Shown here piece by piece: positions 1,747 through 39,716 of a stretch of 44,563 nt of DNA. The notes beneath the pieces were generated by a model. It saw nothing but the letters and a program-made list of their open reading frames with translations. It was not told the origin of the DNA and did not search any database. Source of the stretch: Escherichia phage vB-Eco-KMB14; the sequence record OR424384.1; one strand, 5' to 3'. The stretch's first letter is position 1; each line of letters starts with the position of its first letter. The position numbers and the translations under genes are program-made.

Positions 1747-1860
1747 ATGGAAAAGCTATACAACTTCATCTTTTCAGACGGTGTAACCCTGAAGTGTTCC
1801 CTGCGTTTCGCACAAATTCGTGAGGAAGTACTAGGCACTACATACAAACTATTTAGCTGA
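1747..1860 (+). CDS. Small hypothetical protein (37 aa)
   Basis: ATG 2 nt after the ocr stop, with AGGAAG upstream; in the position of T7 gene 0.4 but with no recognisable similarity. Confidence 0.3.
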   Translation: MEKLYNFIFSDGVTLKCSLRFAQIREEVLGTTYKLFS

Positions 1861-1871
1861 CACTATAAGAG
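1851..1871 (+). promoter_or_regulatory. Phage-RNAP promoter-like variant (ATTTAGCTGACACTATAAGAG)
   Basis: Matches the genome promoter consensus except around +1 (TATAAG instead of TATAGAAG). Confidence 0.3.
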
Positions 1872-1936
1872 AAGGCTTAACAAGGCGTTGCTACGGTAGC
1901 GCCTGATTAAACTTTCACTTACTAGGAGTTGAGATT

Positions 1937-2122
1937 ATGAAAACCTTGATTGGATGCTTCTTGTTGGCTTCTCTTGCTCTGGCATTTACCGCTAAAGCTG
2001 GTTATGACGCTTATAAAGTAGAACAAGCCCAGCAAGACTGGGCCAAAAAGTTCAACTTGTGCAGCAAGAGCAACACCTACGAGTACTGCAACAAAACACT
2101 AAGACACTTATGGAAAGAGTAA
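1937..2122 (+). CDS. Small secreted early protein with N-terminal signal peptide (61 aa)
   Basis: RBS aggag; N-terminus MKTLIGCFLLASLALAFTAKA is a typical Sec signal with an AKA cleavage motif; the mature part has two Cys. Confidence 0.6.
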   Translation: MKTLIGCFLLASLALAFTAKAGYDAYKVEQAQQDWAKKFNLCSKSNTYEYCNKTLRHLWKE

Positions 2123-2185
2123 CTAGCCTATAGCCTACCTGAGTGGGCTATGTGATATTTACTTACACTATATAAGGTGACTATT

Positions 2186-3109
2186 ATGACTACTGAAAAC
2201 ATCCTCCTGTCTGTCCGTGAAGCTGCAACCGCTGAGATTAAGCAGCACTTAGACAATATCGGCACTTCTTACATCAAAGTTGGCGCTTGTCTGAATGAAT
2301 TACGCGGTGATTTCGAAGGTCAAAAAGACTTTTTAGCTTATGTAGAATCAGAGTTCGGCATCAAGAAGGCACAATGCTACAAGCTGATGAGTGTAGCCCG
2401 TGTCTTTGAAGGAGACGAACGCTTTAAAGGTGTGGCTATGCGTGTAATGCTGGCGCTTGTTCCTTTCGCTGATGAAAATATAATCATGGAGAAGGCCGCA
2501 GAACTCGCCGCAGCTGGCAAGCTGGACACTAATGCCGTAAATGCCCTGATTGATCCTAAGAAAGAGACAAAGGCCGAGACGGTACAATCTAAGGCTGAGA
2601 CAGTAAAACCGCAGGAGAACGCGACTGAGGCCGCAGAAACTATGCAAGGACATGCAACCTTTGAGGATTTCATCTTAGAGAAGGCGAAGGAGGAGTTACA
2701 AAGTGTGCCGCCAGTAAGTGAGTCGGGTAACGACGAATCCGCACCGTGGGAAGATGAAAGCAAGCCGGAAGGCACAAAGGCAGCACCGCTGGATAACACG
2801 GCTAATACCGAAAACGCCGCTATTGCTGGTCTGCTGGCACAAATTAAAGCACTGACCGAGCAATTACAGGCAGCTAATGACCGCATTGCCTCCTTAAGCA
2901 GCGCACGCGAAAGCAAGAAAGCAGCCGCGCCTATGCTGCCGCAATTCAAATCTTCCTGCTTCTATGCTCGCTTAGGTTTAAGCGCTGAGGAGGCAACGAA
3001 GAAAACAGCAGTTAACAAGGCACGCCGCGAACTGGTTAAGCTAGGCTACGGCGAAGGCCATGAAGCATGGCCCTTAATCTCTGAGGCAGTAGAAGAATTA
3101 ACTAAGTAA
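2186..3109 (+). CDS. Hypothetical early protein (307 aa), unknown function, acidic/Ala-rich central region
   Basis: Long ORF immediately upstream of the RNAP gene. ATG at 2186 follows aagg; the ORF-track start at 2177 is GTG. Confidence 0.7.
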   Translation: MTTENILLSVREAATAEIKQHLDNIGTSYIKVGACLNELRGDFEGQKDFLAYVESEFGIKKAQCYKLMSVARVFEGDERFKGVAMRVMLALVPFADENIIMEKAAELAAAGKLDTNAVNALIDPKKETKAETVQSKAETVKPQENATEAAETMQGHATFEDFILEKAKEELQSVPPVSESGNDESAPWEDESKPEGTKAAPLDNTANTENAAIAGLLAQIKALTEQLQAANDRIASLSSARESKKAAAPMLPQFKSSCFYARLGLSAEEATKKTAVNKARRELVKLGYGEGHEAWPLISEAVEELTK

Positions 3110-3172
3110 CCTTATCGGTGGCATCTTCTTAGGTGTCACCTATTAAGGTTTCTTTCACTAGGAGTAAACAAG

Positions 3173-5800
3173 ATGCAAGACCTACACGCTATTCAACTTC
3201 AACTTGAAGAAGAAATGTTTAACGGAGGTATCCGTCGCTTTGAAGCGGACCAACAACGCCAGATTGCATCCGGTAATGAATCCGACACGGCATGGAATCG
3301 CCGCTTATTGTCTGAGTTAATCGCGCCAATGGCTGAAGGCATTCAGGCATACAAGGAAGAGTATGAAGGTAAAAGAGGCCGTGCACCGCGTGCATTAGCT
3401 TTCATTAACTGCGTAGAAAACGAAGTGGCAGCATATATCACGATGAAAATCGTTATGGATATGCTGAACACGGATGTAACCTTGCAGGCTATAGCCATGA
3501 ATGTAGCTGACCGCATTGAGGACCAAGTACGTTTTAGCAAGCTGGAAGGTCACGCCGCCAAATACTTTGAGAAAGTTAAGAAGTCACTTAAGGCAAGTAA
3601 GACTAAATCATATCGCCATGCGCACAACGTAGCGGTCGTGGCTGAGAAGTCAGTAGCTGACCGTGACGCTGATTTCTCTCGCTGGGAGGCGTGGCCTAAA
3701 GATACCTTGCTACAAATCGGTATGACCTTGCTAGAAATACTGGAAAATAGTGTATTCTTCAATGGTCAGCCTGTCTTTCTTCGCACCTTGCGCACTAATG
3801 GTGGCAAGCATGGCGTTTACTACTTACAGACTAGCGAACACGTGGGTGAATGGATAACTGCATTTAAAGAGCACGTAGCTCAGCTGAGTCCAGCCTATGC
3901 GCCTTGCGTTATTCCTCCTCGTCCGTGGGTTTCTCCGTTTAATGGTGGCTTCCATACCGAGAAAGTGGCGAGTCGTATTCGTCTGGTTAAAGGAAACCGC
4001 GAGCACGTCCGCAAGCTGACCAAAAAGCAAATGCCAGCGGTTTACAAGGCTGTTAACGCTTTGCAGGCGACTAAGTGGCAGGTTAATAAAGAGGTTTTGC
4101 AGGTAGTAGAGGACGTTATCCGTCTCGACCTTGGTTATGGTGTGCCTTCCTTTAAACCGCTCATCGACCGTGAGAACAAGCCAGCTAATCCAGTGCCGTT
4201 AGAGTTCCAGCACCTGCGAGGCCGTGAACTTAAAGAGATGCTAACGCCGGAACAATGGCAAGCCTTCATCAACTGGAAAGGCGAATGTACCAAGCTGTAT
4301 ACCGCTGAAACTAAGCGCGGCAGCAAGTCGGCGGCAACCGTTCGTATGGTCGGGCAGGCCCGTAAATACAGCCAGTTTGACGCAATATACTTCGTGTATG
4401 CACTGGATAGCCGCTCACGCGTTTATGCGCAATCTAGCACACTCTCACCGCAATCAAATGACTTAGGCAAGGCTTTACTACGCTTTACCGAAGGGCAGAC
4501 CATAAACAGCACTGAGGCGCTTAAGTGGTTTTTGGTGAACGGGGCAAATAACTGGGGCTGGGATAAGAAAACTTTTGACGTGCGTACCGCTAACGTGCTG
4601 GATGGCGAATTTCAAGACATGTGCCGCGACATTGCAGCCGACCCGCTGACCTTCACTCAATGGGTAAATGCTGATTCCCCTTATGGCTTCCTTGCATGGT
4701 GCTTTGAATATGCGCGTTATCTGGATGCACTGGACGAAGGAACGCAAGACCAATTCATGACGCACCTACCCGTCCATCAAGATGGTAGTTGCTCTGGTAT
4801 CCAGCACTATAGCGCGATGTTACGCGATGAGGTAGGTGCGAAAGCAGTAAACCTTAAGCCTTCTGACTCCCCTCAAGATATTTATGGCGCGGTTGCGCAG
4901 GTTGTTATCCAGAAGAATTACGCCTACATGAATGCAGACGATGCAGTGACTTTCACATCCGGAAGCGTCACACTTACAGGTGCAGAACTGCGTAGCATGG
5001 CTAGTGCGTGGGATATGATAGGAATCACTCGCGGCCTGACCAAAAAGCCCGTAATGACACTACCTTATGGCAGCACACGTCTAACCTGCCGTGAGTCAGT
5101 GATTGATTATATCGTTGATTTAGAAGAAAAAGAGGCCCAACGAGCTATTGCGGAAGGGCGTACCGCCAATCCTGTACATCCTTTTGATAATGACCGTAAG
5201 GACAGCCTGACACCTGGCGCAGCTTATAACTATATGACAGCTTTAATCTGGCCTTCTATTTCGGAAGTGGTTAAAGCTCCTATAGTGGCAATGAAAATGA
5301 TTCGTCAGCTTGCCCGTTTCGCAGCTAAAAGGAATGAAGGCTTAGAGTATACCTTGCCTACTGGCTTCATCTTGCAACAAAAGATTATGGCTACTGATAT
5401 GCTCCGCGTATCCACTTGCCTGATGGGAGAAATCAAGATGAGTCTACAGATTGAAACGGACGTAGTGGATGAAACGGCTATGATGGGCGCTGCTGCTCCT
5501 AACTTTGTGCATGGTCATGATGCCAGTCACCTTATCTTAACAGTCTGCGACCTTGTTGATAAAGGGATTACATCTATCGCAGTCATTCATGATTCTTTCG
5601 GTACTCACGCAGGCCGTACAGCCGATCTTCGTGATAGCTTAAGGGCAGAAATGGTGAAGATGTATCAAGGCCGTAATGCCCTGCAAAGCCTGTTAGATGA
5701 GCATGAAGAACGCTGGTTAGTAGACACCGGAATCCAAGTGCCAGAGCAAGGAGAGTTTGACCTTAACGAAATCTTAGTATCTGACTATTGCTTCGCATAA
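3173..5800 (+). CDS. T7-like single-subunit DNA-dependent RNA polymerase (875 aa)
   Basis: Size and motifs typical of T7 RNAP (HDSFGT motif C, PYGS region, C-terminal ...FA); RBS ctaggag. Confidence 0.95.
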
Positions 5801-5808
5801 TATTAATA

Positions 5809-5839
5809 GGCCATTCCTTCGGGAGTGGCCTTTTCTTTT
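5809..5839 (+). terminator. Rho-independent terminator after the RNAP gene (9-bp stem, UUCG tetraloop, T-run)
   Basis: ggccattcc-ttcg-ggagtggcc followed by ttttctttt. Confidence 0.55.
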
Positions 5840-5891
5840 ACCTACTACCGGTAACATTTCATTAACATAAAGTGTCTCACATGTGAGACTT

Positions 5892-5911
5892 ATTTACCGG
5901 ACACTATAGGA
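5892..5911 (+). promoter_or_regulatory. Phage-RNAP promoter (ATTTACCGGACACTATAGGA)
   Basis: Consensus match; first of a twin pair downstream of the RNAP gene. Confidence 0.5.
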
Positions 5912-6072
5912 TAGCCGTCGGAGACGGGAAAGAAAGGGAAGATAAAGGATATAAAGGAAGTAATAGGTATTAAAGGTTATATAGGTTATCTAGGAATACC
6001 TATTACCTTCTTCTTTCCTCTTATTACCACTTAGAGGAAGGGCAGAGCTAGGTTGTCTCACATGTGAGACTT

Positions 6073-6093
6073 ATTTACCGGACAGTATAGATA
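6073..6093 (+). promoter_or_regulatory. Phage-RNAP promoter variant (ATTTACCGGACAGTATAGATA)
   Basis: One substitution in the conserved core (CAGTATAG); second of the twin pair. Confidence 0.35.
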
Positions 6094-6120
6094 AGACTAA
6101 CTTACTTTGGAGATTTAACC

Positions 6121-6249
6121 ATGCGTAACTTTGAGAAGATGACCCGTAAAGCTAACCGTTTTGACATGGAAGAAGGGCAGAAGAAAGGCAAGAAGCTGAA
6201 TAAACCTGTCCGTGACCGTGCATCTAAACGCGCTGCGTGGGAGTTCTAA
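6121..6249 (+). CDS. gp1.1-like small basic protein (42 aa), not in the ORF track
   Basis: Translation MRNFEKMTRKANRFDMEEGQKKGKKLNKPVRDRASKRAAWEF resembles T7 gene 1.1 in sequence, length and position; RBS ggag. Confidence 0.7.
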   Translation: MRNFEKMTRKANRFDMEEGQKKGKKLNKPVRDRASKRAAWEF

Positions 6250-6252
6250 GTT

Positions 6253-8241
6253 ATGGCTATTATTCAGAATGTACCGTGTCCTGCTTGCCAAAAGAACGGA
6301 CATGATATTACTGGCAATCATTTAATGATCTTTGACGACGGGGCAGGGTACTGTAACCGTGGTCACTTCCATGATAACGGTAAACCTTATTACCACAAGC
6401 CGGAAGGTGGCATCGAGATAACCGAGTTACCTATTACTGGCAATATCAAATATACACCTTCTCAATTCAAAGAAATGGAGAAGGAAGGGAAGATAAGCGA
6501 CCCTAAGCTACGCGCCATCGCACTTGGTGGTATGCGTATGAAAGACCGTTGGGAGGTTATGAATGAGCAAGAAAGGGCAGACCAAGAAGCAGAGTGGAAA
6601 CTTGATGTTGAATGGTTTCTCACGCTTAAGCGTAAGAACCTTGTATCCCGTCACATTCGAGGTGACATCGCAGCAATGTACGATGTGCGCGTTGGACACG
6701 ATGAAGAGGGAAGAGTCAACCGTCACTATTATCCACGATATGAAAAGGGTGTGTTTGTTGGAGCAAAATGCCGGACGTTGCCGAAGGATTTTAAGTTCGG
6801 ACACCTAGGTAAACTCTTTGGTATGCAAGACCTTTTCGGTATGAACACTTTGTCTCACGTGTTAGACAAGGGGAGACGAAAGGATTGCTTGCTTATTGTA
6901 GGCGGTGAACTTGATGCACTAGCAGCGCAGCAGATGCTCCTTGATTCTGCCAAAGGTACTAAGTGGGAAGGTCAGCCATACCATGTATGGTCTGTCAATA
7001 AAGGTGAGTCTTGCCTTGAAGAGATAGTGCAAAACCGTGAGCACATAGCCCAATTCAAGAAGATTATATGGGGCTTTGATGGCGACGAGGTGGGGCAGAA
7101 GCAGAACCAACAAGCTGCTCGCCTGTTTCCTGGCAAATCCTACATCCTCGAATATCCATCTGGTTGCAAAGATGCTAACAAGGCATTGATGGCTGGCAAG
7201 GCTAAAGAGTTTGTAGATGCATGGTTTAATGCCAAGTCATCTGATGAAGTCTTTGGTAGCCAGATTAAATCTATCGCATCTCAAAGGGATAAGCTCAAGG
7301 CTGCACGTCCAGAGCAAGGACTATCATGGCCTTGGCCTAAGCTGAACAAGGTAACGCTAGGTATTCGTAAGAACCAACTTATCATTGTAGGCGCAGGCTC
7401 TGGTGTAGGTAAGACTGAGTTCCTTCGTGAAGTAGTTAAGCACCTCATTGAAGAACACGGTGAATCTGTAGGCATCATTTCTACAGAAGACCCGATGGTC
7501 AAGGTGTCCCGTGCTTTTATCGGCAAGTGGATTGATAAGCGTATTGAGTTACCGCCAACCAACGACCCGAAAGAAGATGGATACCGTGAGGTGTTCGACT
7601 ACACCGAGGAAGAGGCTAACGCCGCCATTGATTATGTAGCTGATACAGGTAAGCTGTTTGTAGCTGACCTAGAGGGTGACTATTCGATGGAAAAGGTAGA
7701 GCAAACTTGCCTAGAGTTTGAGGCTATGGGCATTTCTAATATCATCATTGATAACTTAACGGGGATTAAATTAGATGAGCGTGCTTTTGGTGGGAAGGTT
7801 GGTGCACTTGATGAATGCGTCAAGCGGATTGGTACTATCAAAGACCGACACCCGGTTACTATATTCCTTGTATCACACCTTACACGTCCTCCGGCAAACC
7901 GTACCCAACACGAAGAAGGTGGCGAGGTTATCCTTTCTGACTTCCGAGGTTCAGGCGCTATCGGATTCTGGGCATCTTACGCCTTGGGGATTGAGCGTAA
8001 TACAAGAGCTGAAACGCTTGATGAACGGACTACCACGTACATCTCATGTGTCAAAGACCGCGACCAAGGTATCTACACTGGAACCAAGGTCATGCTTAAG
8101 GGTGACATTCAAACCGGACGTTTAATGGAACCACAAGCCCGTACTAAGTCATTTGATACAGGTGAAGCAAGGCAACAAGAAGTGCCGGATTTACCGGACA
8201 CTATAGAAGAGACAACTTTTGACGATGAACAGGAGTTTTAA
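6253..8241 (+). CDS. DNA primase/helicase (T7 gp4-like, 662 aa) with acidic C-terminal tail ending in Phe
   Basis: N-terminal Cys4 zinc ribbon (CPACQ...CNRGH), Walker A GAGSGVGKT, C-terminus ...TTFDDEQEF. Confidence 0.95.
   Translation: MAIIQNVPCPACQKNGHDITGNHLMIFDDGAGYCNRGHFHDNGKPYYHKPEGGIEITELPITGNIKYTPSQFKEMEKEGKISDPKLRAIALGGMRMKDRWEVMNEQERADQEAEWKLDVEWFLTLKRKNLVSRHIRGDIAAMYDVRVGHDEEGRVNRHYYPRYEKGVFVGAKCRTLPKDFKFGHLGKLFGMQDLFGMNTLSHVLDKGRRKDCLLIVGGELDALAAQQMLLDSAKGTKWEGQPYHVWSVNKGESCLEEIVQNREHIAQFKKIIWGFDGDEVGQKQNQQAARLFPGKSYILEYPSGCKDANKALMAGKAKEFVDAWFNAKSSDEVFGSQIKSIASQRDKLKAARPEQGLSWPWPKLNKVTLGIRKNQLIIVGAGSGVGKTEFLREVVKHLIEEHGESVGIISTEDPMVKVSRAFIGKWIDKRIELPPTNDPKEDGYREVFDYTEEEANAAIDYVADTGKLFVADLEGDYSMEKVEQTCLEFEAMGISNIIIDNLTGIKLDERAFGGKVGALDECVKRIGTIKDRHPVTIFLVSHLTRPPANRTQHEEGGEVILSDFRGSGAIGFWASYALGIERNTRAETLDERTTTYISCVKDRDQGIYTGTKVMLKGDIQTGRLMEPQARTKSFDTGEARQQEVPDLPDTIEETTFDDEQEF
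8189..8209 (+). promoter_or_regulatory. Phage-RNAP promoter embedded in the 3' end of the primase/helicase gene
   Basis: ATTTACCGGACACTATAGAAG consensus match. Confidence 0.5.
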
Positions 8242-8402
8242 TGGAAATTATTAAACCAGTATTGAATATCGGTATTGAGATCCTATTCATGCTTGTGATC
8301 GCAGATTATGCTGCACGATATGGCTTCAAGAAAGCAGTGAAACTTATCGTTGCATCTGGTTTTATGATGTCAATGTTCTTTATTGTAACACGCCTTATCT
8401 AG
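8241..8402 (+). CDS. Small hydrophobic membrane protein (53 aa), not in the ORF track
   Basis: ATG overlaps the primase stop; RBS aggag; translation MEIIKPVLNIGIEILFMLVIADYAARYGFKKAVKLIVASGFMMSMFFIVTRLI. Confidence 0.45.
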   Translation: MEIIKPVLNIGIEILFMLVIADYAARYGFKKAVKLIVASGFMMSMFFIVTRLI

Positions 8403-8415
8403 TGTATTTATCAGG

Positions 8416-8446
8416 GCTTGTCTCACATGTGAGACAGGCTCTTATT
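8416..8446 (+). terminator. Conserved palindrome hairpin (GTCTCACATGTGAGAC core) followed by a T-rich tract
   Basis: gcttgtctcacatgtgagacaggc then tcttatt; one of seven copies of the same palindrome. Confidence 0.45.
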
Positions 8447-8474
8447 AAGTACATTAAATAACTGGAGATTGATT

Positions 8475-9158
8475 ATGTATAAATTAGTATTGAATGTAGG
8501 TGATTATGTTCGTAACATCAATGAAGCCTCACGTCGTTATCGTTGCCGTGGTGTAGTGGCTCGTGTAAGTGAGAACATGTATCATGTAGAATATGATGAT
8601 GGTATTAAGGCTTCTTATCACAAGAAAACCGCACATAAATATCTTGAAAAGGTTGTAGAGGTAAACAATCAATGTAAGTGCATACATGATGAGGTTTGCG
8701 ATAAATGTGCTCGCCAGATGCTTAAGAATTTCCTAGCCCCTCTTTATTATGGTGCTGGTCCTCAAACACTAGCAGAGTACATGGCAGAAAAGAAAACCAC
8801 ACTCAAGAAAGAGCGTCGCAATGTAATCACTGGTAAGACTCAAAGTGAGATGATTAAGCAATGTGGCACTGCATTAGGTGTTACACAGTTCAATACTCGT
8901 GCATTGGGTAAATCCACAGGGCAAGCTATGGTGAAAATTGGTGAAGCTATGATGCACCCAAATGTGCCTGTGCGAATCTTGGATGTTGACCATGCAATCA
9001 CAGAGCATGGCACACCACGGCGTGTAGCTAATAATCATTTCGCCGACACTATAGAAGGTATTATTCGTAAGCAAGGGTTGAAGGGTCTTCACATCTTAAA
9101 TGGTGAAGAATTACTGTACCTACCTATCGTTACTGAAGAAACATACGTGAATATCTAA
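8475..9158 (+). CDS. Hypothetical protein (227 aa)
   Basis: ATG at 8475 follows RBS ggag; the ORF-track start at 8469 is TTG. Confidence 0.7.
   Translation: MYKLVLNVGDYVRNINEASRRYRCRGVVARVSENMYHVEYDDGIKASYHKKTAHKYLEKVVEVNNQCKCIHDEVCDKCARQMLKNFLAPLYYGAGPQTLAEYMAEKKTTLKKERRNVITGKTQSEMIKQCGTALGVTQFNTRALGKSTGQAMVKIGEAMMHPNVPVRILDVDHAITEHGTPRRVANNHFADTIEGIIRKQGLKGLHILNGEELLYLPIVTEETYVNI
9037..9057 (+). promoter_or_regulatory. Phage-RNAP promoter-like sequence inside a CDS (ATTTCGCCGACACTATAGAAG)
   Basis: Core GACACTATAGAAG conserved; upstream part diverges. Confidence 0.3.
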
Positions 9159-9168
9159 GGAGTTAATC

Positions 9169-9387
9169 ATGACTAAGGTATTAATTTATATGCGTGGACC
9201 TCATAAATGCTATGCAGTTGTAGCACCAAATGGCGTTAAGCCTTATCGTACTTCAAAAAGATTGGCATTAATAGGTGCTAGTAGTAGTGCAAGTTTCCAA
9301 ATGGAACTTTTTGGTCATTGGACTGAAAGGCAATTCCGTGAGGATTTTAAAGTCATTGGCAGTTTCATGGTGAAATATGCAGAATAA
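9169..9387 (+). CDS. Hypothetical protein (72 aa)
   Basis: RBS aaggag 7 nt upstream of the ATG. Confidence 0.6.
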   Translation: MTKVLIYMRGPHKCYAVVAPNGVKPYRTSKRLALIGASSSASFQMELFGHWTERQFREDFKVIGSFMVKYAE

Positions 9388-9553: not shown

Positions 9554-9560
9554 GTCAAGG

Positions 9561-9590
9561 GTTGTCTCACGTGTGAGACAGCCTTTTATC
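9561..9590 (+). terminator. Conserved palindrome hairpin (GTCTCACGTGTGAGAC) plus T-run; rho-independent terminator-like
   Basis: gttgtctcacgtgtgagacagcc followed by ttttatc. Confidence 0.5.
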
Positions 9591-9610
9591 ATGTTGATTG
9601 GAGGTGCATT

Positions 9611-12630: not shown

Positions 12631-12891
12631 ATGATTAAATACACTGCTTATCAGTTAACTAAAGACCATAAGATAGGTATTGAGGTTAAGGCTTGGGAGC
12701 GAGGTCATATCTCTGGAGTAATAGAGGTGCGTTCCAAGGAAGGTATGATGATTAGAAGACACTTTAGTTTCGCTAAATCTACTTGTAAGCATTTAACAGA
12801 GGAACAATTCTTACATCATATTATTAACAATATTAAAGCTATCCAGCCTTATGCCAAGCAAGTTGTAGGTAATGTCACAGTAGTACATTGA
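12631..12891 (+). CDS. Hypothetical protein (86 aa)
   Basis: RBS aaggaa; its last 21 nt are part of the duplicated 105-bp unit. Confidence 0.6.
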   Translation: MIKYTAYQLTKDHKIGIEVKAWERGHISGVIEVRSKEGMMIRRHFSFAKSTCKHLTEEQFLHHIINNIKAIQPYAKQVVGNVTVVH

Positions 12892-12911
12892 TTTACTGGA
12901 CACTATAGAAG
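12891..12911 (+). promoter_or_regulatory. Phage-RNAP promoter (ATTTACTGGACACTATAGAAG), copy 1 of the duplicated unit
   Basis: Exact consensus. Confidence 0.7.
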
Positions 12912-13082
12912 GAAAGCCTAGATAATCTAGGTTTATAAGGTAGTATAGGTAATTAAGTAAATATAGGAGATATAAGCTATAGGTTCTGCCGTTATGGCTG
13001 GTATGTCTTCTATTGGTAGTATGTTTACAGGCAGCGGCTGCTGCACCGCTGCCTGTAAACATAATGTCACAGTAGTACATTG

Positions 13083-13103
13083 ATTTACTGGACACTATAG
13101 AAG
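13083..13103 (+). promoter_or_regulatory. Phage-RNAP promoter, copy 2 of the duplicated unit, driving the 13170 gene
   Basis: Exact consensus; followed by the leader and RBS ataggaga. Confidence 0.7.
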
Positions 13104-13169
13104 GAAAGCCTAGATAATCTAGGTTTATAAGGTAGTATAGGTAATTAAGTAAATATAGGAGATATAAAC

Positions 13170-13547
13170 ATGTCTATGGTAACTACTCTGGTATTTGTAG
13201 CTCAATACTTTCGTGGTCTGGCTAATAAGTTCAAGTCCAAGGCTATCAAAGCTATTGAGTCTCGCATCGAGGCAGTCCAGGCAGAGCAAGTTAAAGTTGA
13301 AGAACATCGTAGTTCTCAAATGATTGACTGCCACAATCGCTACTATGCATCTCGTGATGAACTGAATGCTCGTCAAGTCAAAGAGGTTGAAGAGATGCTG
13401 GCACGTCACCAGCAAGAGCGCGACAGCCTGAAAGCTGAATTTGAAGAGAACAAGGCATCCATCGCCCTTGTACATCAAGCCGCATCTGACAGCCTGAAGA
13501 AAGAGATTGTTATGCTGGAGATTGAGTTAGACAATCTTACCAAATAA
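13170..13547 (+). CDS. Hypothetical coiled-coil protein (125 aa)
   Basis: RBS aggaga; charged heptad-like sequence. Confidence 0.65.
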   Translation: MSMVTTLVFVAQYFRGLANKFKSKAIKAIESRIEAVQAEQVKVEEHRSSQMIDCHNRYYASRDELNARQVKEVEEMLARHQQERDSLKAEFEENKASIALVHQAASDSLKKEIVMLEIELDNLTK

Positions 13548-13566
13548 TTACTGGACACTATAGAAC
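13546..13566 (+). promoter_or_regulatory. Phage-RNAP promoter variant (AATTACTGGACACTATAGAAC)
   Basis: Consensus match with A at -16 and C at +6; overlaps the 3' end of the upstream ORF. Confidence 0.5.
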
Positions 13567-14744: not shown

Positions 14745-14776
14745 AGTCTCACGTGTGAGACAAATCGGTGTCCGGT

Positions 14777-14797
14777 ATTTACTGGACACTATAGAAG
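14777..14797 (+). promoter_or_regulatory. Phage-RNAP promoter (ATTTACTGGACACTATAGAAG)
   Basis: Exact consensus, immediately downstream of the palindrome hairpin. Confidence 0.7.
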
Positions 14798-16971: not shown

Positions 16972-17971
16972 GCTTCGCAGCTTGTACAAAGACTCCGAGG
17001 TACTTGATGCAATCGAGCAAGCTACCGACGAGAAAGGTAATGTTAATTATAATGAGATGGCACGTGTATTATCGTGTCACCCTGTGGGTAAGAAGATTAC
17101 CCGCCAGTTGGCTCGATACTGGCATGGTCAATTCAAGAAGACCAAGAAGAATGGTGATTATTACCAGACCCTTCTGCAAGAAGATAAGCGTATCAAAGAA
17201 GAGCGTAAGCTCAGGACTCCTGACCGCTACGAGGATTTGGCTATTGTACCATTGCCTGACTCGCCTCATCGAAGTGTACTGGTAATCCCTGATACTCATG
17301 CACCTTATGAGCATCCAGATACCTTAGAGTTCCTTGCAGCAGTCGCGGCACGTTACCGTCCAGATACAGTGGTTCACTTAGGAGATGAGGCAGATAAACA
17401 CGCCCTCTCCTTCCATGACTCTGACCCTAATCTGGATAGTGCTGGCATGGAGCTAGAGAAGGCTCGTGTCTTCATGCACAAGTTGCACAAGATGTTCCCT
17501 GTGATGCGCCTGTGTCATTCTAATCACGGCTCTATGCACTTCCGTAAGGCAAGCGCCAAGGGTATTCCAGTGCAATATCTTCGCACCTACCGTGAAGTCT
17601 TTTTCCCAAATGGAGGTGGCGACCAGTGGGATTGGCAGCATACACATGTTCTTGAGTTGCCGAATGGTGAACAAGTGGCATTCAAGCATCAACCTGCTGG
17701 CTCTGTCCTAGCAGATGCAGCGCATGAGCGTATGAACCTTGTGTGTGGTCACTTGCACGGTAAGATGTCTGTGGAGTACGCACGTAATACACATGAACAG
17801 TATTGGGCTGTGCAAGGTGGCTGCTTAATTGATGAGTCATCCCGTGCATTTGCCTATGGGCGTGAGTCTAAATACAAGCCAGCATTAGGTTGTGTGGTTA
17901 TTCTGGAGGGTGTGCCTCATATTGTCCCGATGCAAACCAATAGCGACAACCGTTGGATTGGCAAGATTTAG
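16964..17971 (+). CDS. Calcineurin-like metallophosphoesterase (about 335 aa from a TTG start; the ATG at 17057 is an alternative)
   Basis: Motifs VIPDTHAP, HLGDEAD and GHLH. A perfect AGGAGG sits 6 nt before TTG 16964; the ORF-track start at 16832 lies deep inside the endonuclease VII gene. Confidence 0.65.
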   Translation: MGKLRSLYKDSEVLDAIEQATDEKGNVNYNEMARVLSCHPVGKKITRQLARYWHGQFKKTKKNGDYYQTLLQEDKRIKEERKLRTPDRYEDLAIVPLPDSPHRSVLVIPDTHAPYEHPDTLEFLAAVAARYRPDTVVHLGDEADKHALSFHDSDPNLDSAGMELEKARVFMHKLHKMFPVMRLCHSNHGSMHFRKASAKGIPVQYLRTYREVFFPNGGGDQWDWQHTHVLELPNGEQVAFKHQPAGSVLADAAHERMNLVCGHLHGKMSVEYARNTHEQYWAVQGGCLIDESSRAFAYGRESKYKPALGCVVILEGVPHIVPMQTNSDNRWIGKI

Positions 17972-17986
17972 TTGACACTATAGAAC
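17966..17986 (+). promoter_or_regulatory. Phage-RNAP promoter variant (ATTTAGTTGACACTATAGAAC)
   Basis: The closest copy to the canonical SP6 promoter ATTTAGGTGACACTATAGAAG. Confidence 0.5.
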
Positions 17987-23168: not shown

Positions 23169-23189
23169 ATTTACTGGACACTATAGAAG
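23169..23189 (+). promoter_or_regulatory. Phage-RNAP promoter upstream of the major capsid gene
   Basis: Exact consensus, followed by a 5' leader hairpin (gggaga-aatg-tctccc) and RBS aaggagg. Confidence 0.75.
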
Positions 23190-27639: not shown

Positions 27640-28361
27640 TGGCTATAGGTTCTGCCGTTATGGCTGGTATGTCTTCTATTGGTAGTATGTTTACAGGCAG
27701 CGGTGCAGCAGCCGCTGCTGGAGGTGCTGCCGCAGGTGGCGGAGGCTTGCTAGGTTCTCTAGGTGGCTTCCTAAGCGGCTCTACTGCTGGCTTCTCTAAT
27801 GCTGGGCTTCTTGGTGCTGGCCTTCAAGGTTTAGGCTTGATTGGTGATCTCTTTGGTGGAAGTGATGAAGCCAAGGCAATGAAGAAAGCACAAGAAGAAC
27901 AGTGGCGGCAGCAACTTATTGCTACACAAGAAGCATACAAAACAGTAGCAGATGCAGAGCGTTCTGCTGCTAAACAATATCATGCAGATGCAATAAGCAA
28001 TCAGGCTTCACTACTACAGCAGCGAGCACAGGTTGCATTACTAGCAGGTGCTACTGGTACTGGTGGTAACTCTGTATCTTCTATGCTGAATGACTTAGCA
28101 GCAGAGGGCGGGAGGAACCAGAGTACAATTATTGATAACTATGAGAATCAGAAGATTAACTTCACCAATCAGCTTAAGTCTATCCAGCGAGGTGGACAGA
28201 TGCAGATGCGTGAGTTTAAGAAGCCTTCTGCCGTGAGCACCTTGGTGCAAGGTATACCGAGTCTGGCATCTGCCTATGTAACAGGTAGTAAGTCCGGCAT
28301 GGCTTTAGGTAAAGCTTTAACTGATTCTCGTACATATTCATCTGGAACAAGAGGTATTTAA
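27639..28361 (+). CDS. Internal virion protein A (Gly/Ala-rich N-terminus), 240 aa
   Basis: ATG at 27639 follows RBS ggaggg. Its 5' end (27642-27711) is the source of the ectopic insert at 12976-13062. Confidence 0.7.
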   Translation: MAIGSAVMAGMSSIGSMFTGSGAAAAAGGAAAGGGGLLGSLGGFLSGSTAGFSNAGLLGAGLQGLGLIGDLFGGSDEAKAMKKAQEEQWRQQLIATQEAYKTVADAERSAAKQYHADAISNQASLLQQRAQVALLAGATGTGGNSVSSMLNDLAAEGGRNQSTIIDNYENQKINFTNQLKSIQRGGQMQMREFKKPSAVSTLVQGIPSLASAYVTGSKSGMALGKALTDSRTYSSGTRGI

Positions 28362-31321: not shown

Positions 31322-31350
31322 GGCTTGTCTCACATGTGAGACAGGTCTTT
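31322..31350 (+). terminator. Conserved palindrome hairpin (GTCTCACATGTGAGAC) plus T-rich tract
   Basis: gcttgtctcacatgtgagacaggtc followed by tttat. Confidence 0.45.
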
Positions 31351-31373
31351 ATGATAGGCACTATGGAGGAATT

Positions 31374-35644: not shown

Positions 35645-35653
35645 GGAGGTAGG

Positions 35654-35848
35654 ATGATTAACTCCGAACTGGTAGATAGTGGTGTGAAGCTTGCGCCACC
35701 TGCACTCGTATCAGGTGGGTACTTCCTCGGTATCAGTTGGGATAATTGGGTGTTAATAGCAACATTCATTTATACCGTGTTGCAAATTGGGGACTGGTTT
35801 TATAATAAGTTCAAGATTTGGAGGGAGAAGCGTGAGCGTACACAATAA
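35654..35848 (+). CDS. Putative holin (64 aa, single TM, charged C-terminus)
   Basis: Strong RBS aaggagg; hydrophobic core WVLIATFIYTVLQI and C-terminus KIWREKRERTQ; same position as T7 gp17.5. Confidence 0.55.
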   Translation: MINSELVDSGVKLAPPALVSGGYFLGISWDNWVLIATFIYTVLQIGDWFYNKFKIWREKRERTQ

Positions 35849-36131
35849 ACATGCAGCTACAGAGGATGAGGTTGGCATTCTGCATGGTGCTATTACCAAA
35901 ATCTTCAATAAAAAAGCACAGGCAATACTGGACACTATAGAAGAAGACCCTGATGCAGCATTACATTTAGTGTCTGGTAAGGATATTGGTGCGATGTGTA
36001 AGTGGGTTCTTGATAACGGCATTACCGCCACACCTGCTGCACAGCAGGAAGAGTCCAAGTTATCTAAGCGCCTCAAGGCTATCCGAGAGGCATCCAGTGG
36101 TAAGATAATTCAATTCACTAAGGAGGATTGA
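35832..36131 (+). CDS. Putative terminase small subunit (about 99 aa, GTG start)
   Basis: GTG at 35832 follows RBS ggaggga; lies directly upstream of and overlapping the large terminase. Confidence 0.5.
   Translation: MSVHNKHAATEDEVGILHGAITKIFNKKAQAILDTIEEDPDAALHLVSGKDIGAMCKWVLDNGITATPAAQQEESKLSKRLKAIREASSGKIIQFTKED
35923..35943 (+). promoter_or_regulatory. Phage-RNAP promoter-like sequence embedded in the small terminase gene (CAATACTGGACACTATAGAAG)
   Basis: Core conserved; the -17 to -13 region diverges. Confidence 0.35.
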
Positions 36132-38029
36132 TGGCTAAGGCAAGAGAATCACAAGCGGAGGCTCTTGCCAGATGGGAGATGCTACAGGAGTTACAGCAGG
36201 CCTTTCCTTACACAGCGGAAGGTTTGCTTCTCTTTGCAGATACAGTTATTCATAACTTAATTGCAGGCAACCCTCATCTGATTCGTATGCAGGCGGATAT
36301 CTTGAAGTTCCTATTTTACGGACACAAGTACCGCCTCATCGAAGCGCCTCGTGGTATCGCTAAGACAACACTATCAGCAATCTATACGGTATTCCGTATT
36401 ATTCATGAACCGCATAAGCGTATCATGGTTGTGTCCCAAAACGCCAAGCGAGCAGAGGAAATCGCAGGTTGGGTAGTTAAAATCTTCCGTGGCTTAGACT
36501 TTCTTGAGTTTATGCTGCCGGATATCTACGCTGGGGACCGTGCATCCGTTAAGGCGTTTGAGATTCATTACACCCTACGTGGTAGTGATAAGTCTCCTTC
36601 TGTATCCTGTTACTCAATCGAAGCAGGTATGCAGGGTGCTCGTGCTGATATTATTCTAGCGGATGACGTAGAGTCGATGCAGAATGCTCGTACGGCAGCG
36701 GGCCGTGCCTTGCTTGAGGAACTGACTAAGGAGTTTGAATCTATCAACCAGTTTGGGGATATCATTTACCTTGGTACACCTCAGAACGTAAACTCTATCT
36801 ACAACAACCTACCTGCTCGTGGTTACTCTGTTCGTATCTGGACTGCGCGTTACCCTTCAGTAGAGCAAGAGCAATGTTATGGCGACTTCCTTGCACCTAT
36901 GATTGTTCAAGATATGAAGGACAACCCAGCACTTCGCTCAGGGTACGGGTTGGATGGTAATAGTGGTGCACCTTGTGCCCCTGAAATGTATGATGATGAA
37001 GTCCTGATTGAGAAGGAAATCTCTCAGGGTGCTGCTAAGTTCCAGCTTCAGTTCATGCTTAACACTCGCATGATGGATGCTGACAGATACCCATTACGCC
37101 TGAACAATCTAATCTTCACCTCGTTTGGTACAGAGGAAGTCCCTGTGATGCCTACGTGGAGTAATGATTCCATAAACATCATTGGTGATGCACCTAAGTA
37201 TGGTAACAAGCCTACGGATTTCATGTACAGACCTGTAGCTCGCCCATACGAATGGGGTGCTGTCTCCCGCAAGATTATGTATATTGACCCTGCGGGTGGT
37301 GGTAAGAACGGAGATGAGACGGGTGTAGCCATCGTATTCCTGCACGGCACATTCATTTATGTGTATCAGTGCTTTGGTGTACCTGGCGGATACCGAGAGT
37401 CGTCCCTGAATCGCATTGTGCAGGCCGCAAAGCAGGCGGGTGTTAAAGAGGTATTCATTGAGAAGAACTTTGGTCATGGCGCGTTTGAGGCGGTAATTAA
37501 GCCGTACTTTGAACGAGAGTGGCCTGTAACTCTGGAAGAGGATTACGCCACCGGACAGAAAGAATTGCGTATCATTGAGACGCTGGAGCCGCTCATGGCA
37601 GCCCATAGGCTTATCTTCAATGCAGAGATGGTGAAGTCAGACTTTGAGTCGGTACAGCACTATCCGCTTGAACTACGCATGTCCTACAGTCTTTTCAATC
37701 AAATGTCGAACATAACGATTGAGAAGAACAGCCTCCGGCACGATGACCGCCTAGACGCCCTGTATGGCGCTATACGGCAATTAACTTCTCAGATAGACTA
37801 TGACGAGGTTACACGGATTAATCGCCTCAGAGCGCAGGAGATGCGAGATTACATCCATGCTATGAACACACCTCATCTACGCAGGGCAATGCTATATGGG
37901 GATTACGGTACTGAGCGAAGAGTGACCAACACTTCCGTAGCGATGCAGCAGCGAGTTTACGGGCAGAACTACCGAAATAAATCGGCAAGCAGAAATACAC
38001 TTTCTGCAAGGATTTCAAGGACTTATTAA
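36128..38029 (+). CDS. Terminase large subunit (633 aa)
   Basis: Walker A-like PRGIAKTT; size and position as T7 gp19; RBS aaggagg. Confidence 0.9.
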   Translation: MMAKARESQAEALARWEMLQELQQAFPYTAEGLLLFADTVIHNLIAGNPHLIRMQADILKFLFYGHKYRLIEAPRGIAKTTLSAIYTVFRIIHEPHKRIMVVSQNAKRAEEIAGWVVKIFRGLDFLEFMLPDIYAGDRASVKAFEIHYTLRGSDKSPSVSCYSIEAGMQGARADIILADDVESMQNARTAAGRALLEELTKEFESINQFGDIIYLGTPQNVNSIYNNLPARGYSVRIWTARYPSVEQEQCYGDFLAPMIVQDMKDNPALRSGYGLDGNSGAPCAPEMYDDEVLIEKEISQGAAKFQLQFMLNTRMMDADRYPLRLNNLIFTSFGTEEVPVMPTWSNDSINIIGDAPKYGNKPTDFMYRPVARPYEWGAVSRKIMYIDPAGGGKNGDETGVAIVFLHGTFIYVYQCFGVPGGYRESSLNRIVQAAKQAGVKEVFIEKNFGHGAFEAVIKPYFEREWPVTLEEDYATGQKELRIIETLEPLMAAHRLIFNAEMVKSDFESVQHYPLELRMSYSLFNQMSNITIEKNSLRHDDRLDALYGAIRQLTSQIDYDEVTRINRLRAQEMRDYIHAMNTPHLRRAMLYGDYGTERRVTNTSVAMQQRVYGQNYRNKSASRNTLSARISRTY

Positions 38030-38048
38030 TTACTGGACACTATAGAAG
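38028..38048 (+). promoter_or_regulatory. Phage-RNAP promoter after the terminase gene
   Basis: AATTACTGGACACTATAGAAG; its first 24 transcribed nt resemble the leader of the 12891 promoter. Confidence 0.7.
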
Positions 38049-38186
38049 GAAGGCCCAGATAATAAGAGAAAATAATAGGTAATATATAGGTTAACCTAGG
38101 TTATATAGATATGCCTTAGTATGGGTGTACTCCTGTACACCCTATTCATTACTACCTTACTATATTTACATAATAGGAGAGAGACA

Positions 38187-38465
38187 ATGGCTAATGATTA
38201 TAGTAGTCAACCATTAACAGGTAAGTCTAAGAGAAAGCAGGTACAACCTGTAAGTGAAGAACTAATGCTTCCGGTAATCAAAAAAGAGGAAGCTAGTAAG
38301 AAAAGCAATGTCATTAATGATGCCACCAAATCAGGTAAACAGAAAGGGGCCATGGTGTGCCTTGAAGTGGAAGGTGGTGTATTGAAGATTGCTATCGCGG
38401 TTGATGGCAAAGAAGATTCAGAGTGGAAGTTAGTAACAGTGGAACCAGCTGTTAACCCAGTTTAA
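38187..38465 (+). CDS. Small hypothetical protein, paralog 1 (92 aa)
   Basis: ATG at 38187 follows RBS aggaga; shares the SGKQKGAMVxLE block with the next ORF. Confidence 0.6.
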   Translation: MANDYSSQPLTGKSKRKQVQPVSEELMLPVIKKEEASKKSNVINDATKSGKQKGAMVCLEVEGGVLKIAIAVDGKEDSEWKLVTVEPAVNPV

Positions 38466-38483
38466 GATAAGGAGGAAGATTAC

Positions 38484-38777
38484 ATGGCTAAATATGGTAC
38501 TACAGGTTCTGTTACTGGTCAGGCTTTTCGAGTAAAAGCAGTACAAACTATTGCAACGGCAATCCCTATGCCTGTTGTTAAAGAAGCAGACCTTAAGAGT
38601 AAAGATCACCCTATCAACATCAAACACCTGTCAGGTAAGCAGAAAGGTGCAATGGTTGCTCTTGAGAAAGATGACACAACCATGCATATTGCTGTTGCAC
38701 GTGGCAGTGAACCAACAGACCCATGGGATGTAACTGGTATGGAAGGGGCAGCTGTCACTCCAGCAGGTGGAGAATAA
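38484..38777 (+). CDS. Small hypothetical protein, paralog 2 (97 aa)
   Basis: RBS aaggagg; shared block HLSGKQKGAMVALEKDD...IAVA. Confidence 0.65.
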   Translation: MAKYGTTGSVTGQAFRVKAVQTIATAIPMPVVKEADLKSKDHPINIKHLSGKQKGAMVALEKDDTTMHIAVARGSEPTDPWDVTGMEGAAVTPAGGE

Positions 38778-39121
38778 TGCTTAACAAATACTTCAAGCGC
38801 CGTGAGTTCGCTTGCCGTTGTGGGTGCGGTACATCCACTGTTGATGCTGAATTACTACAGGTAGTCACAGATGTGCGTGAGCACTTTGGCTCTCCTGTAG
38901 TTATCACTTCGGGGCATCGCTGTGCTAAGCACAATGCTAATGTAGGAGGAGCTAAGAACTCCATGCATCTTACTGGTAAGGCTGCTGACATTAAGGTGTC
39001 TGGTGTTGGCCCAATGGAGGTACGTGCATACCTCTGCAATAAATACCATGATAAGTACGGTATTGGTGCTTATCCTACTTTTACCCATATCGACGTTAGA
39101 GATAACAAAGCCAGATGGTAA
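38777..39121 (+). CDS. Endolysin, zinc peptidase M15 (L-Ala-D-Glu peptidase / D-Ala-D-Ala carboxypeptidase-like), 114 aa
   Basis: SGHRC...HN...S.H.TGKAAD signature of M15 peptidases; ATG at 38777 overlaps the upstream stop. Confidence 0.75.
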   Translation: MLNKYFKRREFACRCGCGTSTVDAELLQVVTDVREHFGSPVVITSGHRCAKHNANVGGAKNSMHLTGKAADIKVSGVGPMEVRAYLCNKYHDKYGIGAYPTFTHIDVRDNKARW

Positions 39122-39229
39122 GATGCATTGAATGGTGTGAACGCATGGTTGCTAAGGCTTCAGAGGAAGGTAACTATGAAGATTGGCAGAACTACTCAAC
39201 TTTATTAGCACAATGGAAAGGGAGGTGCA

Positions 39230-39379
39230 ATGAAAAAGCTGTTCAAATCTAAGAAGGTTGTAGGTGCACTAGTTGCATTGGCAATTGCTCTTGTTTCTGT
39301 AGGTCTTGGTGTAGACCTTGGCTCTGGCACGGAATCCTCTGTGACAGATGTGGTCTGCCAAGTGATCACCTGTGAATAA
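39230..39379 (+). CDS. Small membrane protein (49 aa), not in the ORF track; lysis-associated candidate
   Basis: Strong RBS gggagg; N-terminus MKKLFKSKKVVGALVALAIALVSVGLGV. Confidence 0.45.
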   Translation: MKKLFKSKKVVGALVALAIALVSVGLGVDLGSGTESSVTDVVCQVITCE

Positions 39380-39593
39380 GTTTCTAGAAGTTCTGGCAGG
39401 TCTTATTGGCCTGCTTGTCTCTGCTAAGAAGAAACAAGAAGAGAAGGAGGCACAAAGTGAAGCGAATCATGTTAGTGACAACCCTTCTGATTGGTTCGCT
39501 GACCACTTCCGGGTGTCAGCAGGCGTTACCAGAGAAAGCAATGGTGAAACCTCTGAGGCCGACGCTGACGGAAGTTTACGAGGTAGACGATAA
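39372..39593 (+). CDS. Possible i-spanin-like protein (73 aa, GTG start, N-terminal TM)
   Basis: N-terminal hydrophobic segment FLEVLAGLIGLLVSA; contains the lipoprotein ORF in another frame. Shorter than typical Rz proteins. Confidence 0.3.
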   Translation: MNKFLEVLAGLIGLLVSAKKKQEEKEAQSEANHVSDNPSDWFADHFRVSAGVTRESNGETSEADADGSLRGRR

Positions 39594-39666
39594 GGTCTGC
39601 TTTAGTAAGCCTGACGCTACAAAATTAGGTTTGTATATTCTTTCGCTGGAACGCGGATATAATTAA
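39457..39666 (+). CDS. Putative o-spanin lipoprotein (Rz1-like), 69 aa from GTG
   Basis: Perfect AGGAGG 6 nt before GTG 39457; signal MKRIMLVTTLLIGSLTTSGC with a lipobox-like TSGC; Pro-rich mature region. Confidence 0.5.
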   Translation: MKRIMLVTTLLIGSLTTSGCQQALPEKAMVKPLRPTLTEVYEVDDKVCFSKPDATKLGLYILSLERGYN

Positions 39667-39695
39667 TACATAGCTTTATGTATCAGTGTCTTACG

Positions 39696-39716
39696 ATTTA
39701 CTGGACACTATAGAAG
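39696..39716 (+). promoter_or_regulatory. Phage-RNAP promoter upstream of the tailspike genes
   Basis: Exact consensus ATTTACTGGACACTATAGAAG. Confidence 0.7.

Follow-up and report, generated by a model that had tools for sequence, protein, structure and literature searches.

The DNA of Escherichia phage vB-Eco-KMB14 considered here (44,563 nucleotides, sequence record OR424384.1; in the following, the window) carries a repeated 21-base motif, ATTTACTGGACACTATAGAAG, which is the already described promoter set of K1E/K1-5-like coliphages. A preliminary description of this DNA had listed 14 copies and was a correct rediscovery of a known signal, as every one of the 14 positions carries the motif on the plus strand; on the minus strand of the window no promoter-like site was found. 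With high confidence, we regard the sites as middle and late promoters for the single-subunit RNA polymerase encoded by the phage itself, an enzyme of the SP6/K1E branch. This assignment, also made at the outset, is borne out by the polymerase gene, the synteny with SP6, the identity with K1E and the working polymerase/promoter pairs of K1E and K1-5.

Detection and consensus of the promoter set

With up to three mismatches, ATTTACTGGACACTATAGAAG occurs at 11 sites, compared with 0.00 expected from 100 shuffles, and its core GACACTATAGAA with at most one mismatch occurs 12 times, compared with 0.23 expected. The sites at 1851, 6073 and 9037 have four to five mismatches to ATTTACTGGACACTATAGAAG. 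Since these three, like the duplicate at 13083, were left out when a weight matrix was built from ten sites, they represent an independent test, and they score 20.3–22.6 bits, while the other sites reach 29.8–37.0 bits and the best score across 50 shuffled genomes is 18.5 bits. Matrix matches at 31972 and 34989 (10–12 bits) and a CACTATA at 4805 were dismissed, as they lie under this best shuffle score.

Counting the G after TATA as +1, the CACTATAG core with G at +1 is present in 12 of the 14 sites, the exceptions being 1851 (A at +1) and 6073 (CAGTATAG). Positions -17 to -13 read ATTTA or AATTA in all sites but 9037 (ATTTC) and 35923 (CAATA). The block from -12 to -8 is CTGGA in eight sites (12891, 13083, 13546, 14777, 23169, 35923, 38028 and 39696) and CCGGA in three further ones. 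Thirteen sites lie downstream of the polymerase gene and one, 1851, upstream of it, and each of the strong sites stands ahead of a gene or gene block, with leaders of 31–262 nt.

The list of sites required three amendments. The three copies said to lie inside coding sequences do so, but five more (1851, 12891, 13546, 17966 and 38028) overlap the stop codon of the upstream gene, and six (5892, 6073, 13083, 14777, 23169 and 39696) are intergenic. All 14 sites are present, but 12891 and 13083 are not independent, as both lie within an exact 106-nt duplication. Finally, a degenerate promoter-like sequence at 2157 had been missed.

Genome context and relation to K1E, K1-5, SP6 and T7

In a megablast comparison against a phage collection, the window shows 93–96% identity to the Vectrevirus genomes K1E, K1-5, 6949, VEc3, LI10P3 and LF31P3 over most of its first 25 kb and 96–98.6% over the rest. 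When the K1E proteins were compared with the window by tblastn, a collinear map from gp1 to gp48 was obtained with every gene on the plus strand. Because of these identities, the collinear map and the RNA polymerase gene at 3173–5800, we assign the window as a near-complete Vectrevirus genome of the K1E/K1-5-like type, within the SP6 branch of the T7 supergroup (Autographiviridae, Molineuxvirinae). The early region has the usual layout as well: two consensus-like sigma-70 promoters at 423–451 and 1007–1035, with a perfect TTGACA -35 hexamer and 10 of 12 matches overall, and a strong intrinsic terminator at 5808–5831, directly after the polymerase gene, are predicted to bound a host-transcribed early region. 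The possibility that the 14 sites are themselves sigma-70 promoters was rejected, as consensus-like host promoters are limited to 423 and 1007 and the overall count equals chance. An Rfam scan of the window matched no family.

The synteny of the sites and their letter identity with related genomes can be read directly from the alignments. K1E has letter-identical sites at 13 orthologous positions, the deviant and internal ones included, and 6949 and LF31P3 have the same 13 sites, with one or two single-base exceptions per genome. K1-5 shares the consensus ATTTACTGGACACTATAGAAG, with 11 places matching within three mismatches. Compared with K1E and K1-5, the window has one extra promoter copy, which stems from a private 192-bp duplication. 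A gp9.5 gene follows the helicase gene in the window and in K1E but not in K1-5, and the helicase site of K1-5 has a T at -7, unlike that of the window.

SP6 (Zindervirus) carries sites of its own type, ATTTAGGTGACACTATAGAAG, at 12 of the 13 syntenic positions and lacks only the one in the small terminase gene. Its promoters agree with those of the window in length, in having ATTTA at -17 to -13 and the GACACTATAGAAG core, and in starting at G; the SP6 promoter consensus is standard knowledge. Even the irregularities recur: stop-codon overlaps and GAAC endings are found in SP6 too, and both have TATAGAAC at the promoters of gp16 and gp23, TATAAGA downstream of gene 4 and TATAGGA at the promoter that comes first behind the polymerase gene. 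At the outset, the GAAC and CAGTATAG variants had been suggested as possibly weaker promoters. As the same sites in K1E keep both deviations, and as GAAC is also kept in SP6, these deviations are best read as fixed, position-specific features and not as decay. SP6 differs in having GGT at -12 to -10, an Arg at the position equivalent to T7 N748 and a gene 10 site that lies four codons further downstream.

In T7, many copies of the 23-bp class II and III promoters lie on one strand and are read by a phage-encoded single-subunit polymerase; a tandem pair follows the polymerase gene, phi4c lies inside gene 4, and leaders start with hairpins. The same logic applies to the window, with copies inside or overlapping coding sequence, a tandem pair and leader hairpins, although the T7 promoters share only the CACTATAG core region with it and the polymerases are 35% identical.

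Polymerase and promoter specificity

The polymerase gene (3173–5800, plus strand) encodes a single-subunit enzyme of 875 residues, which is predicted to read the promoter set and is 99.8% identical to that of Vectrevirus LF31P3, 99% to that of K1-5, 98% to that of K1E, 86% to that of SP6 and 35% to that of T7. Its specificity loop is encoded by 36 codons at 5375–5482, which align to T7 residues 736–772. At the position of T7 N748 the window (Ser747, codon 5411–5413) and K1E have Ser, whereas Arg is found in SP6, Proteus phage PM116 and Klebsiella phage PA45-9. Of the positions compared (T7 746, 748, 754, 756 and 758), the sole other change relative to SP6 is Glu753 in place of Asp, and the equivalents of R746, R756 and Q758 are unchanged, the latter two being Lys and Ser (K755 and S757) in both phages.

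The preliminary description had named the block from -12 to -8, given as ACTGG, as the most likely determinant separating this polymerase from that of SP6. The idea fits the published covariation and the single relevant change in the loop, but the labels were off by one: with G after TATA as +1, ACTGG occupies -13 to -9, and -12 to -8 reads CTGGA in the window and GGTGA in SP6. The difference between the two blocks thus lies at -12, -11 and -10 (CTG vs GGT). The window falls into the K1E-type class, with the CTGGA block and Ser/Lys/Ser at the positions of T7 748/756/758, compared with Arg/Lys/Ser in SP6. The block varies further between genera, the promoter of PM116 being AATTA(A/G)AGACCACTATAGAAG and that of PA45-9 being TTAATAGTGGCGAGTATAGAAG.

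A recent study that mined polymerase/promoter pairs from 23,854 phage genomes identified residues 748/756/758 and promoter positions -12 to -8 as the main determinants and placed K1E and SP6 in separate specificity clusters (PMC11880802, 2025). The inference on -12 to -8 is hence reasonable and already in the literature. CTG at -12 to -10 goes along with Ser747 as GGT does with Arg in SP6, and by analogy with T7 the two may be in direct contact; this is an analogy only, because the K1E and SP6 polymerases fit the T7-derived recognition rules poorly (PMC11880802).

Function of closely related pairs has been documented. In the C3P3 study, the promoter of each phage's major capsid gene was used, and the K1E polymerase together with the K1E promoter drives expression in cells (PMC6412113). 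In E. coli as well as in CHO (Chinese hamster ovary) cells, the K1-5 polymerase works specifically with its 21-bp promoter (PMC12231593), and in a paper on a Vibrio-phage genome the K1E promoter consensus is cited, with -8 to -12 taken as the specificity region (PMC4099482). A search for the exact promoter string in the searchable literature found no paper. The promoter sets of SP6 and K1-5 were reportedly tabulated by Scholl and colleagues in 2004, and that of K1E is said to have been tabulated by Stummeyer and colleagues in 2006.

Taken together, the following scheme is strongly favoured. Transcription of the early genes by host RNA polymerase would run from the sigma-70-like promoters close to the left end to the terminator behind the polymerase gene. 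The phage polymerase would then bind each 21–23-bp promoter and start at the G after TATA; by analogy with T7, its AT-rich recognition loop would act on ATTTA (-17 to -13) and its specificity loop on the block from -12 to -8. Rightward transcription would proceed via the genes for DNA metabolism, structure, packaging and tailspikes. The combination of six intergenic, five stop-overlapping and three internal sites would be the way in which a tightly packed genome accommodates a fixed DNA signal. We infer initiation at each site, as well as the relative strengths of the sites.

Sites along the genome

The most upstream site, ATTTAGCTGACACTATAAGAG at 1851–1871, is a weak promoter-like sequence (22.6 bits, five mismatches, A at +1) upstream of the gp5-like gene, gp6 and the RNA polymerase gene. 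Its positions -10 to -8 are formed by the TGA stop codon of gp4. The site is identical in K1E (2779), 6949 and LF31P3, and its SP6 counterpart, GTGACACTATAAGA at 2104, has the gene 4 stop in the same position. The degenerate sequence ATTTACTTACACTATATAAGG at 2157–2177 lies just before gp6, with a terminator-like hairpin (2129–2152) just upstream of it; it is one base short of the consensus spacing and has a T at +1. It is kept in K1E, LF31P3 and 6949, and in K1-5 it takes the form ATTTACTTAACACTATATAAG, with one extra base; in SP6 a counterpart is absent.

After the polymerase gene follow two tandem promoters, namely ATTTACCGGACACTATAGGAT at 5892–5912 (30.7 bits, intergenic; orthologues at K1E 6824 and SP6 6118) and ATTTACCGGACAGTATAGATA at 6073–6093 (22.5 bits, 31 nt before gp8; identical at K1E 7008, with SP6 6287 as counterpart). 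It is conceivable, although somewhat less probable than an ordinary role in messenger synthesis, that this pair mainly represents the primary replication origin, like T7 phi1.1A/phi1.1B with their AT-rich region, whose origin placement was reportedly described by Dunn and Studier in 1983 and by Saito, Tabor and Richardson in 1980. The placement is the same as in T7, with 5892 and 6073 lying 92 and 273 nt after the polymerase stop at 5800. A distance of 181 nt separates the two promoters, the G+C content of the spacer is 39%, compared with 45% in the genome, many short A/G-rich repeats lie in it, and the pair is kept in K1E and SP6. On the other hand, the drop in G+C is modest, the literature examined contains no mapped origin for this phage group, and the second promoter is also well placed for the expression of gp8 and the helicase gene.

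Further along, the gp15 promoter exists as two consensus copies of 35.9 bits each, the upstream duplicate at 12891–12911, with the orf86 stop codon at -19 to -17, and the orthologous copy at 13083–13103, with a 70-nt leader (K1E 13925, LF31P3 21747, SP6 12542). It is followed by the gp16 promoter AATTACTGGACACTATAGAAC at 13546–13566 (34.3 bits), identical at K1E 14694, while its counterpart at SP6 13005 likewise ends in GAAC, and by the intergenic consensus promoter of gp18 at 14777–14797 (37.0 bits; K1E 15932, SP6 14286). The gp23 promoter ATTTAGTTGACACTATAGAAC at 17966–17986 (29.8 bits) has the gp22 stop codon TAG at -14 to -12, where SP6 (17428) has TAA. The consensus promoter of the major capsid gene at 23169–23189 (36.0 bits) has a 54-nt leader with a 5' hairpin and an identical counterpart at K1E 24431. 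Further to the right, AATTACTGGACACTATAGAAG at 38028–38048 (34.7 bits; K1E 40033, SP6 37773) follows the large terminase gene (terL), whose stop codon TAA it contains at -18 to -16, and the consensus promoter of the tailspike genes at 39696–39716 (37.0 bits; K1E 41717, K1-5 39265, SP6 39910) precedes an 85-nt leader with a 5' hairpin.

Four departures from the consensus at the stop-overlapping sites are explained by the stop codon embedded in the promoter. A TAA at -18 to -16 turns the sequence into AATTAC at 13546, where the gp15 stop accounts for the A at -16, and at 38028; in 17966, the G at -12 comes from a TAG that spans -14 to -12, and in 1851, the T at -10 comes from a TGA (-10 to -8), SP6 being arranged likewise. 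No stop codon accounts for the T at -10 of 17966, and in 12891 the orf86 stop (-19 to -17) does not disturb the consensus.

A stable 5' hairpin at the start of the leader (+1 to +45) is predicted for 1851, 5892, 12891/13083, 23169 and 39696 (z-scores of about -2.5 to -3.6) and a weaker one for 13546 (z-score -1.9), while such hairpins are absent from the transcripts of the three internal sites (8189, 9037 and 35923). These stem-loops, beginning a few bases from the predicted start, resemble the stabilising hairpins of T7 late mRNAs.

Two side observations concern the genes around the last two sites. The large terminase gene (36131–38029) is intact, while the K1E copy is split by a homing endonuclease gene (gp40A / gp40.5 / gp40B). 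The two tailspike genes at 39798–43965 form the main region without close relatives, and coverage in the best genome matches falls to 87%; resemblance to the K1E endosialidase is confined to 43 N-terminal residues (56%) and a C-terminal stretch (29–32%), and the capsule targeted by the phage is probably other than K1.

Copies inside coding sequences and deviant sites

Three sites lie within genes. The first (8189–8209; 35.6 bits, one mismatch) lies within the primase/helicase gene, in its 3' end and 35 nt ahead of gp9.5, and SP6 has a near-consensus site of its own type, AATTAGGTGACACTATAGAAG, at the same place (SP6 8411). The second, ATTTCGCCGACACTATAGAAG at 9037–9057 within gp10 (20.3 bits), deviates at -13 to -10 and lies 115 nt before gp10.5; its core is invariant across 13 Vectrevirus sequences whose gp10 identity is as low as 75%. 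The third, CAATACTGGACACTATAGAAG at 35923–35943 inside the small terminase gene (terS; 30.7 bits), 191 nt before the large terminase gene, fits the consensus from -14 to +4 and is found throughout Vectrevirus.

As had been stated, all three are read in frame as Asp-Thr-Ile-Glu (DTIE), with GAC at 8197, 9045 and 35931 in the genes starting at 6253, 8475 and 35832. One of the three reading frames through the promoter (..TGG ACA CTA TAG..) contains a TAG stop, which leaves two open frames, and the probability that three of three copies share one frame is 1/8. As DTIE follows from the DNA signal together with this stop, it is most simply regarded as a by-product without significance for the proteins.

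The opposite view would be that the three internal copies are unused as promoters and are kept by a protein need for Asp-Thr-Ile-Glu or by shared ancestry. We consider this unlikely, albeit not to be dismissed lightly, since within Vectrevirus the synonymous positions at these sites show no significant excess of conservation over the remainder of the genes, a GAT (T at -7) occurs in K1-5 and in one metagenomic relative, and 9037 is off consensus at -13 to -10. The codons speak against it. Given DTIE, the codons of GACACTATAGAA (GAC ACT ATA GAA) have a probability of 0.012 under the codon usage of the genome, and ILDTIE as written in terS has one of 0.00035; the promoter-matching codon is thus used at every position despite the rarity of ATA, the rarest Ile codon of this genome (15%). 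The sole other DTIE of the proteome (gp47, 42073) is encoded differently, as GATACCATTGAG. At the terS position, SP6 has AAVE and other, more distant genera have DAIE in codons unlike the promoter, and the SP6 helicase gene keeps the near-consensus SP6-type site mentioned above. The gene 10 copy of SP6, TATTACGTGACACTATAGGTG at 9112, retains a promoter-like core four codons downstream of the Vectrevirus copy in a protein that is only 38% identical, which argues that a start signal within gene 10 is itself maintained. From these patterns, selection at the internal sites appears to act on the DNA and not on the protein.

Several points nevertheless weigh against the promoter assignment, in which each single site of this phage is a predicted promoter. 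Activity may be very low or absent at three sites, namely 1851 (five mismatches and A at +1), 6073 (G at -5) and 9037 (four changes between -13 and -10). An excess of synonymous-site conservation at the internal sites is not significant within Vectrevirus for terS, gp10 or the 3' end of the helicase gene, with indecisive window ranks of 21/96, 10/224 and 48/118 at a divergence that is too low; the assessment of these sites therefore draws on the codon-usage probabilities, the fourth DTIE and the SP6 comparison. The T at -7 affects both the helicase site of K1-5 and the terS site of the metagenomic relative, and to this comes the poor fit of the K1E and SP6 polymerases to the T7-derived rules.

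With respect to the weak outliers, it would be possible, yet is rather improbable from our point of view, that 1851, 6073, 9037 and 2157 are decayed relics without activity. They have four to five mismatches, some of them at positions expected to matter (the A at +1, the G at -5, the changes at -12 to -10 and, at 2157, a one-base deletion). All four, however, are letter-identical in K1E and LF31P3, and in 6949 three are identical and the counterpart of 9037 differs by one base. Moreover, except for 2157, they have SP6 counterparts with the same type of deviation (TATAAGA at 2104, the deviant core at 6287 and the gene 10 copy). Decay is disfavoured because it would not preserve the same deviation in SP6.

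A private duplication and a family of palindromes

The extra promoter copy results from an exact 106-nt repeat (12870–12975 = 13062–13167) comprising the gp15 promoter, its leader and the ribosome-binding site. The 86 nt between the copies derive from the 5' end of the phage's own gp34: 12976–13037 equals 27642–27703, and 13031–13061 is the reverse complement of 27688–27718, so that the whole corresponds to a fold-back at a short inverted repeat. This 192-bp insertion is private to the genome, K1E, 6949, LF31P3 and SP6 having a single copy, and it looks like the product of a template switch or an assembly artefact. Because 12891 and 13083 are duplicates whichever origin applies, the number of orthologous promoters is 13.

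The recent 106-nt duplication could suggest that the repeats in general are copies of a mobile or recombining DNA element and not regulatory signals. At the other sites, however, similarity stops within ~25–35 nt and the flanks are unrelated, and the positions are syntenic across genera whose motif itself differs. Long shared flanks, target-site duplications and positions that vary between close relatives are all absent, by which the mobile-element explanation is refuted, and we assign it next to no probability; the sites are better understood as probable promoters.

A second repeated signal is the palindrome GTCTCACRTGTGAGAC, present in eight copies compared with 0.15 expected. The copy GTCTCACATGTGAGAC at 5874–5889 lies directly upstream of the promoter at 5892, a second one (6055–6070) abuts the promoter at 6073, and a third (14746–14761) lies 15 nt upstream of 14777. 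Three copies (8420–8435, 9564–9579 and 31327–31342) lie at gene ends and are followed by a T-rich run, and further copies occur at 373–388 and 6852–6867. SP6 and PA45-9 have a doubly compensated form, GTCCAAC..GTTGGAC, beside promoters, which is also found in one Vectrevirus-like contig; in SP6 it lies immediately upstream of the promoters at 6118, 6287 and 14286. As the double compensatory changes preserve the stem, this suggests a conserved hairpin and thereby a candidate terminator or processing site.

Promoter sequences of lytic-phage type in a prophage cassette

An exact scan of IMG/VR with TTACTGGACACTATAGAAG gave several matches per Vectrevirus contig and, in addition, one match each in dozens of contigs of 20–58 kb. 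Fifteen of the single-match contigs, aligned over 219 nt, represent one element with 98% identity. The element is located in lambdoid prophages of the HK97/P27 type, between an HNH endonuclease gene beside the terminase genes and the iss/bor and lysis genes, and is oriented away from the head genes. In E. coli M217 (NZ_AP019189, locus L144) this cassette spans positions 5984–6232 of the locus (2772942–2773190 of the record), with all its elements oriented alike. It starts with a T7-like promoter sequence, CAATACAACTCACTAATGGAGAGG (5984–6007), followed by the hairpin GGCTTGTCCAACACGTTGGACAAG, the palindrome known from beside promoters of SP6-group phages, and a perfect K1E-type promoter, ATTTACTGGACACTATAGAAGG (6041–6062), and it ends with a 51-nt leader containing AAGGAGG as a strong ribosome-binding site and a 40-codon open frame (6110–6232). 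Further cassettes were found at 3907–4156 of locus L041, at 522–757 of the Shigella phage SfIV locus (L143) and in loci L039–L124 and L150–L176. Overall, 632 of the 5426 complete E. coli genomes, about one in nine, contain the cassette, and the K1E-type form is matched at 99% identity or more by 411 records. None of the 20 rows checked has an annotation under the cassette, and no description of it was found in the searchable literature.

The cassette varies in its promoters. In SfIV the element has an SP6-type block, ATTTAGGTGACACTTTAGAAGG, together with CAATACGACTCACTAATGGGGAGG, the latter sharing 14 consecutive bases with the T7 consensus, and among 28 sequences the second promoter block occurs in at least six types, with -12, -11 and -10 all varying. 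ATTTA, TATAG and most of the core between them are fixed across the same sequences. The variation is concentrated at the hairpin arms, which change in compensating pairs, at the spacer after them and at the promoter, while the leader is almost invariant (three of 46 columns variable). A consensus RNA fold revealed almost no covariation. For the 40-codon frame there is no sign of purifying selection, the variable sites being distributed 9/8/8 over the three codon positions, and no match to this putative gene was obtained in Pfam, NCBIfam or PADLOC. A scan of representative genomes for the ribosome-binding stretch gave chance hits only.

What the cassette shares with the window, K1E or SP6 is restricted to the promoter (about 29 nt) and the hairpin (at most 26 nt). 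An exchange of modules with SP6-group phages beyond this signal was rejected, as the spanins and the HNH endonuclease of the prophages and the 40-codon frame are without protein similarity to the window, K1E or SP6. Contamination by a cloning vector was likewise discarded in view of the tandem promoters in the same orientation, the K1E type of the second one and the presence of the cassette in complete chromosomes, and so was an identity with the svsR small RNA, which lies in cI (PMC12803456).

One could speculate that an infecting T7- or SP6/K1E-like phage turns the cassette on with its polymerase, the cassette acting either as an abortive-infection trap or as a hitch-hiking device, and that the resulting arms race helps to explain changes in promoter specificity including the split between K1E and SP6. 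We put this forward as a long shot, and the cassette could also be a recurrent recombination scar.

Implications

Overall, the isolate follows the standard transcription plan of K1E/K1-5-like phages, and it provides a clean promoter map for annotation or for engineering that makes use of the K1E or K1-5 polymerase. For annotation it is helpful that deviations from the consensus mostly mark a stop codon embedded in the promoter and that DTIE peptides mark protein sequence dictated by a promoter. The only surprise, and the item worth following up, is the prophage cassette, which comes from outside the window. If prophages of the host keep lytic-phage promoters that vary at exactly the specificity positions, promoter specificity may itself be attacked during infection, and this would bear on the old question why phages of the T7 supergroup have mutually exclusive promoters.

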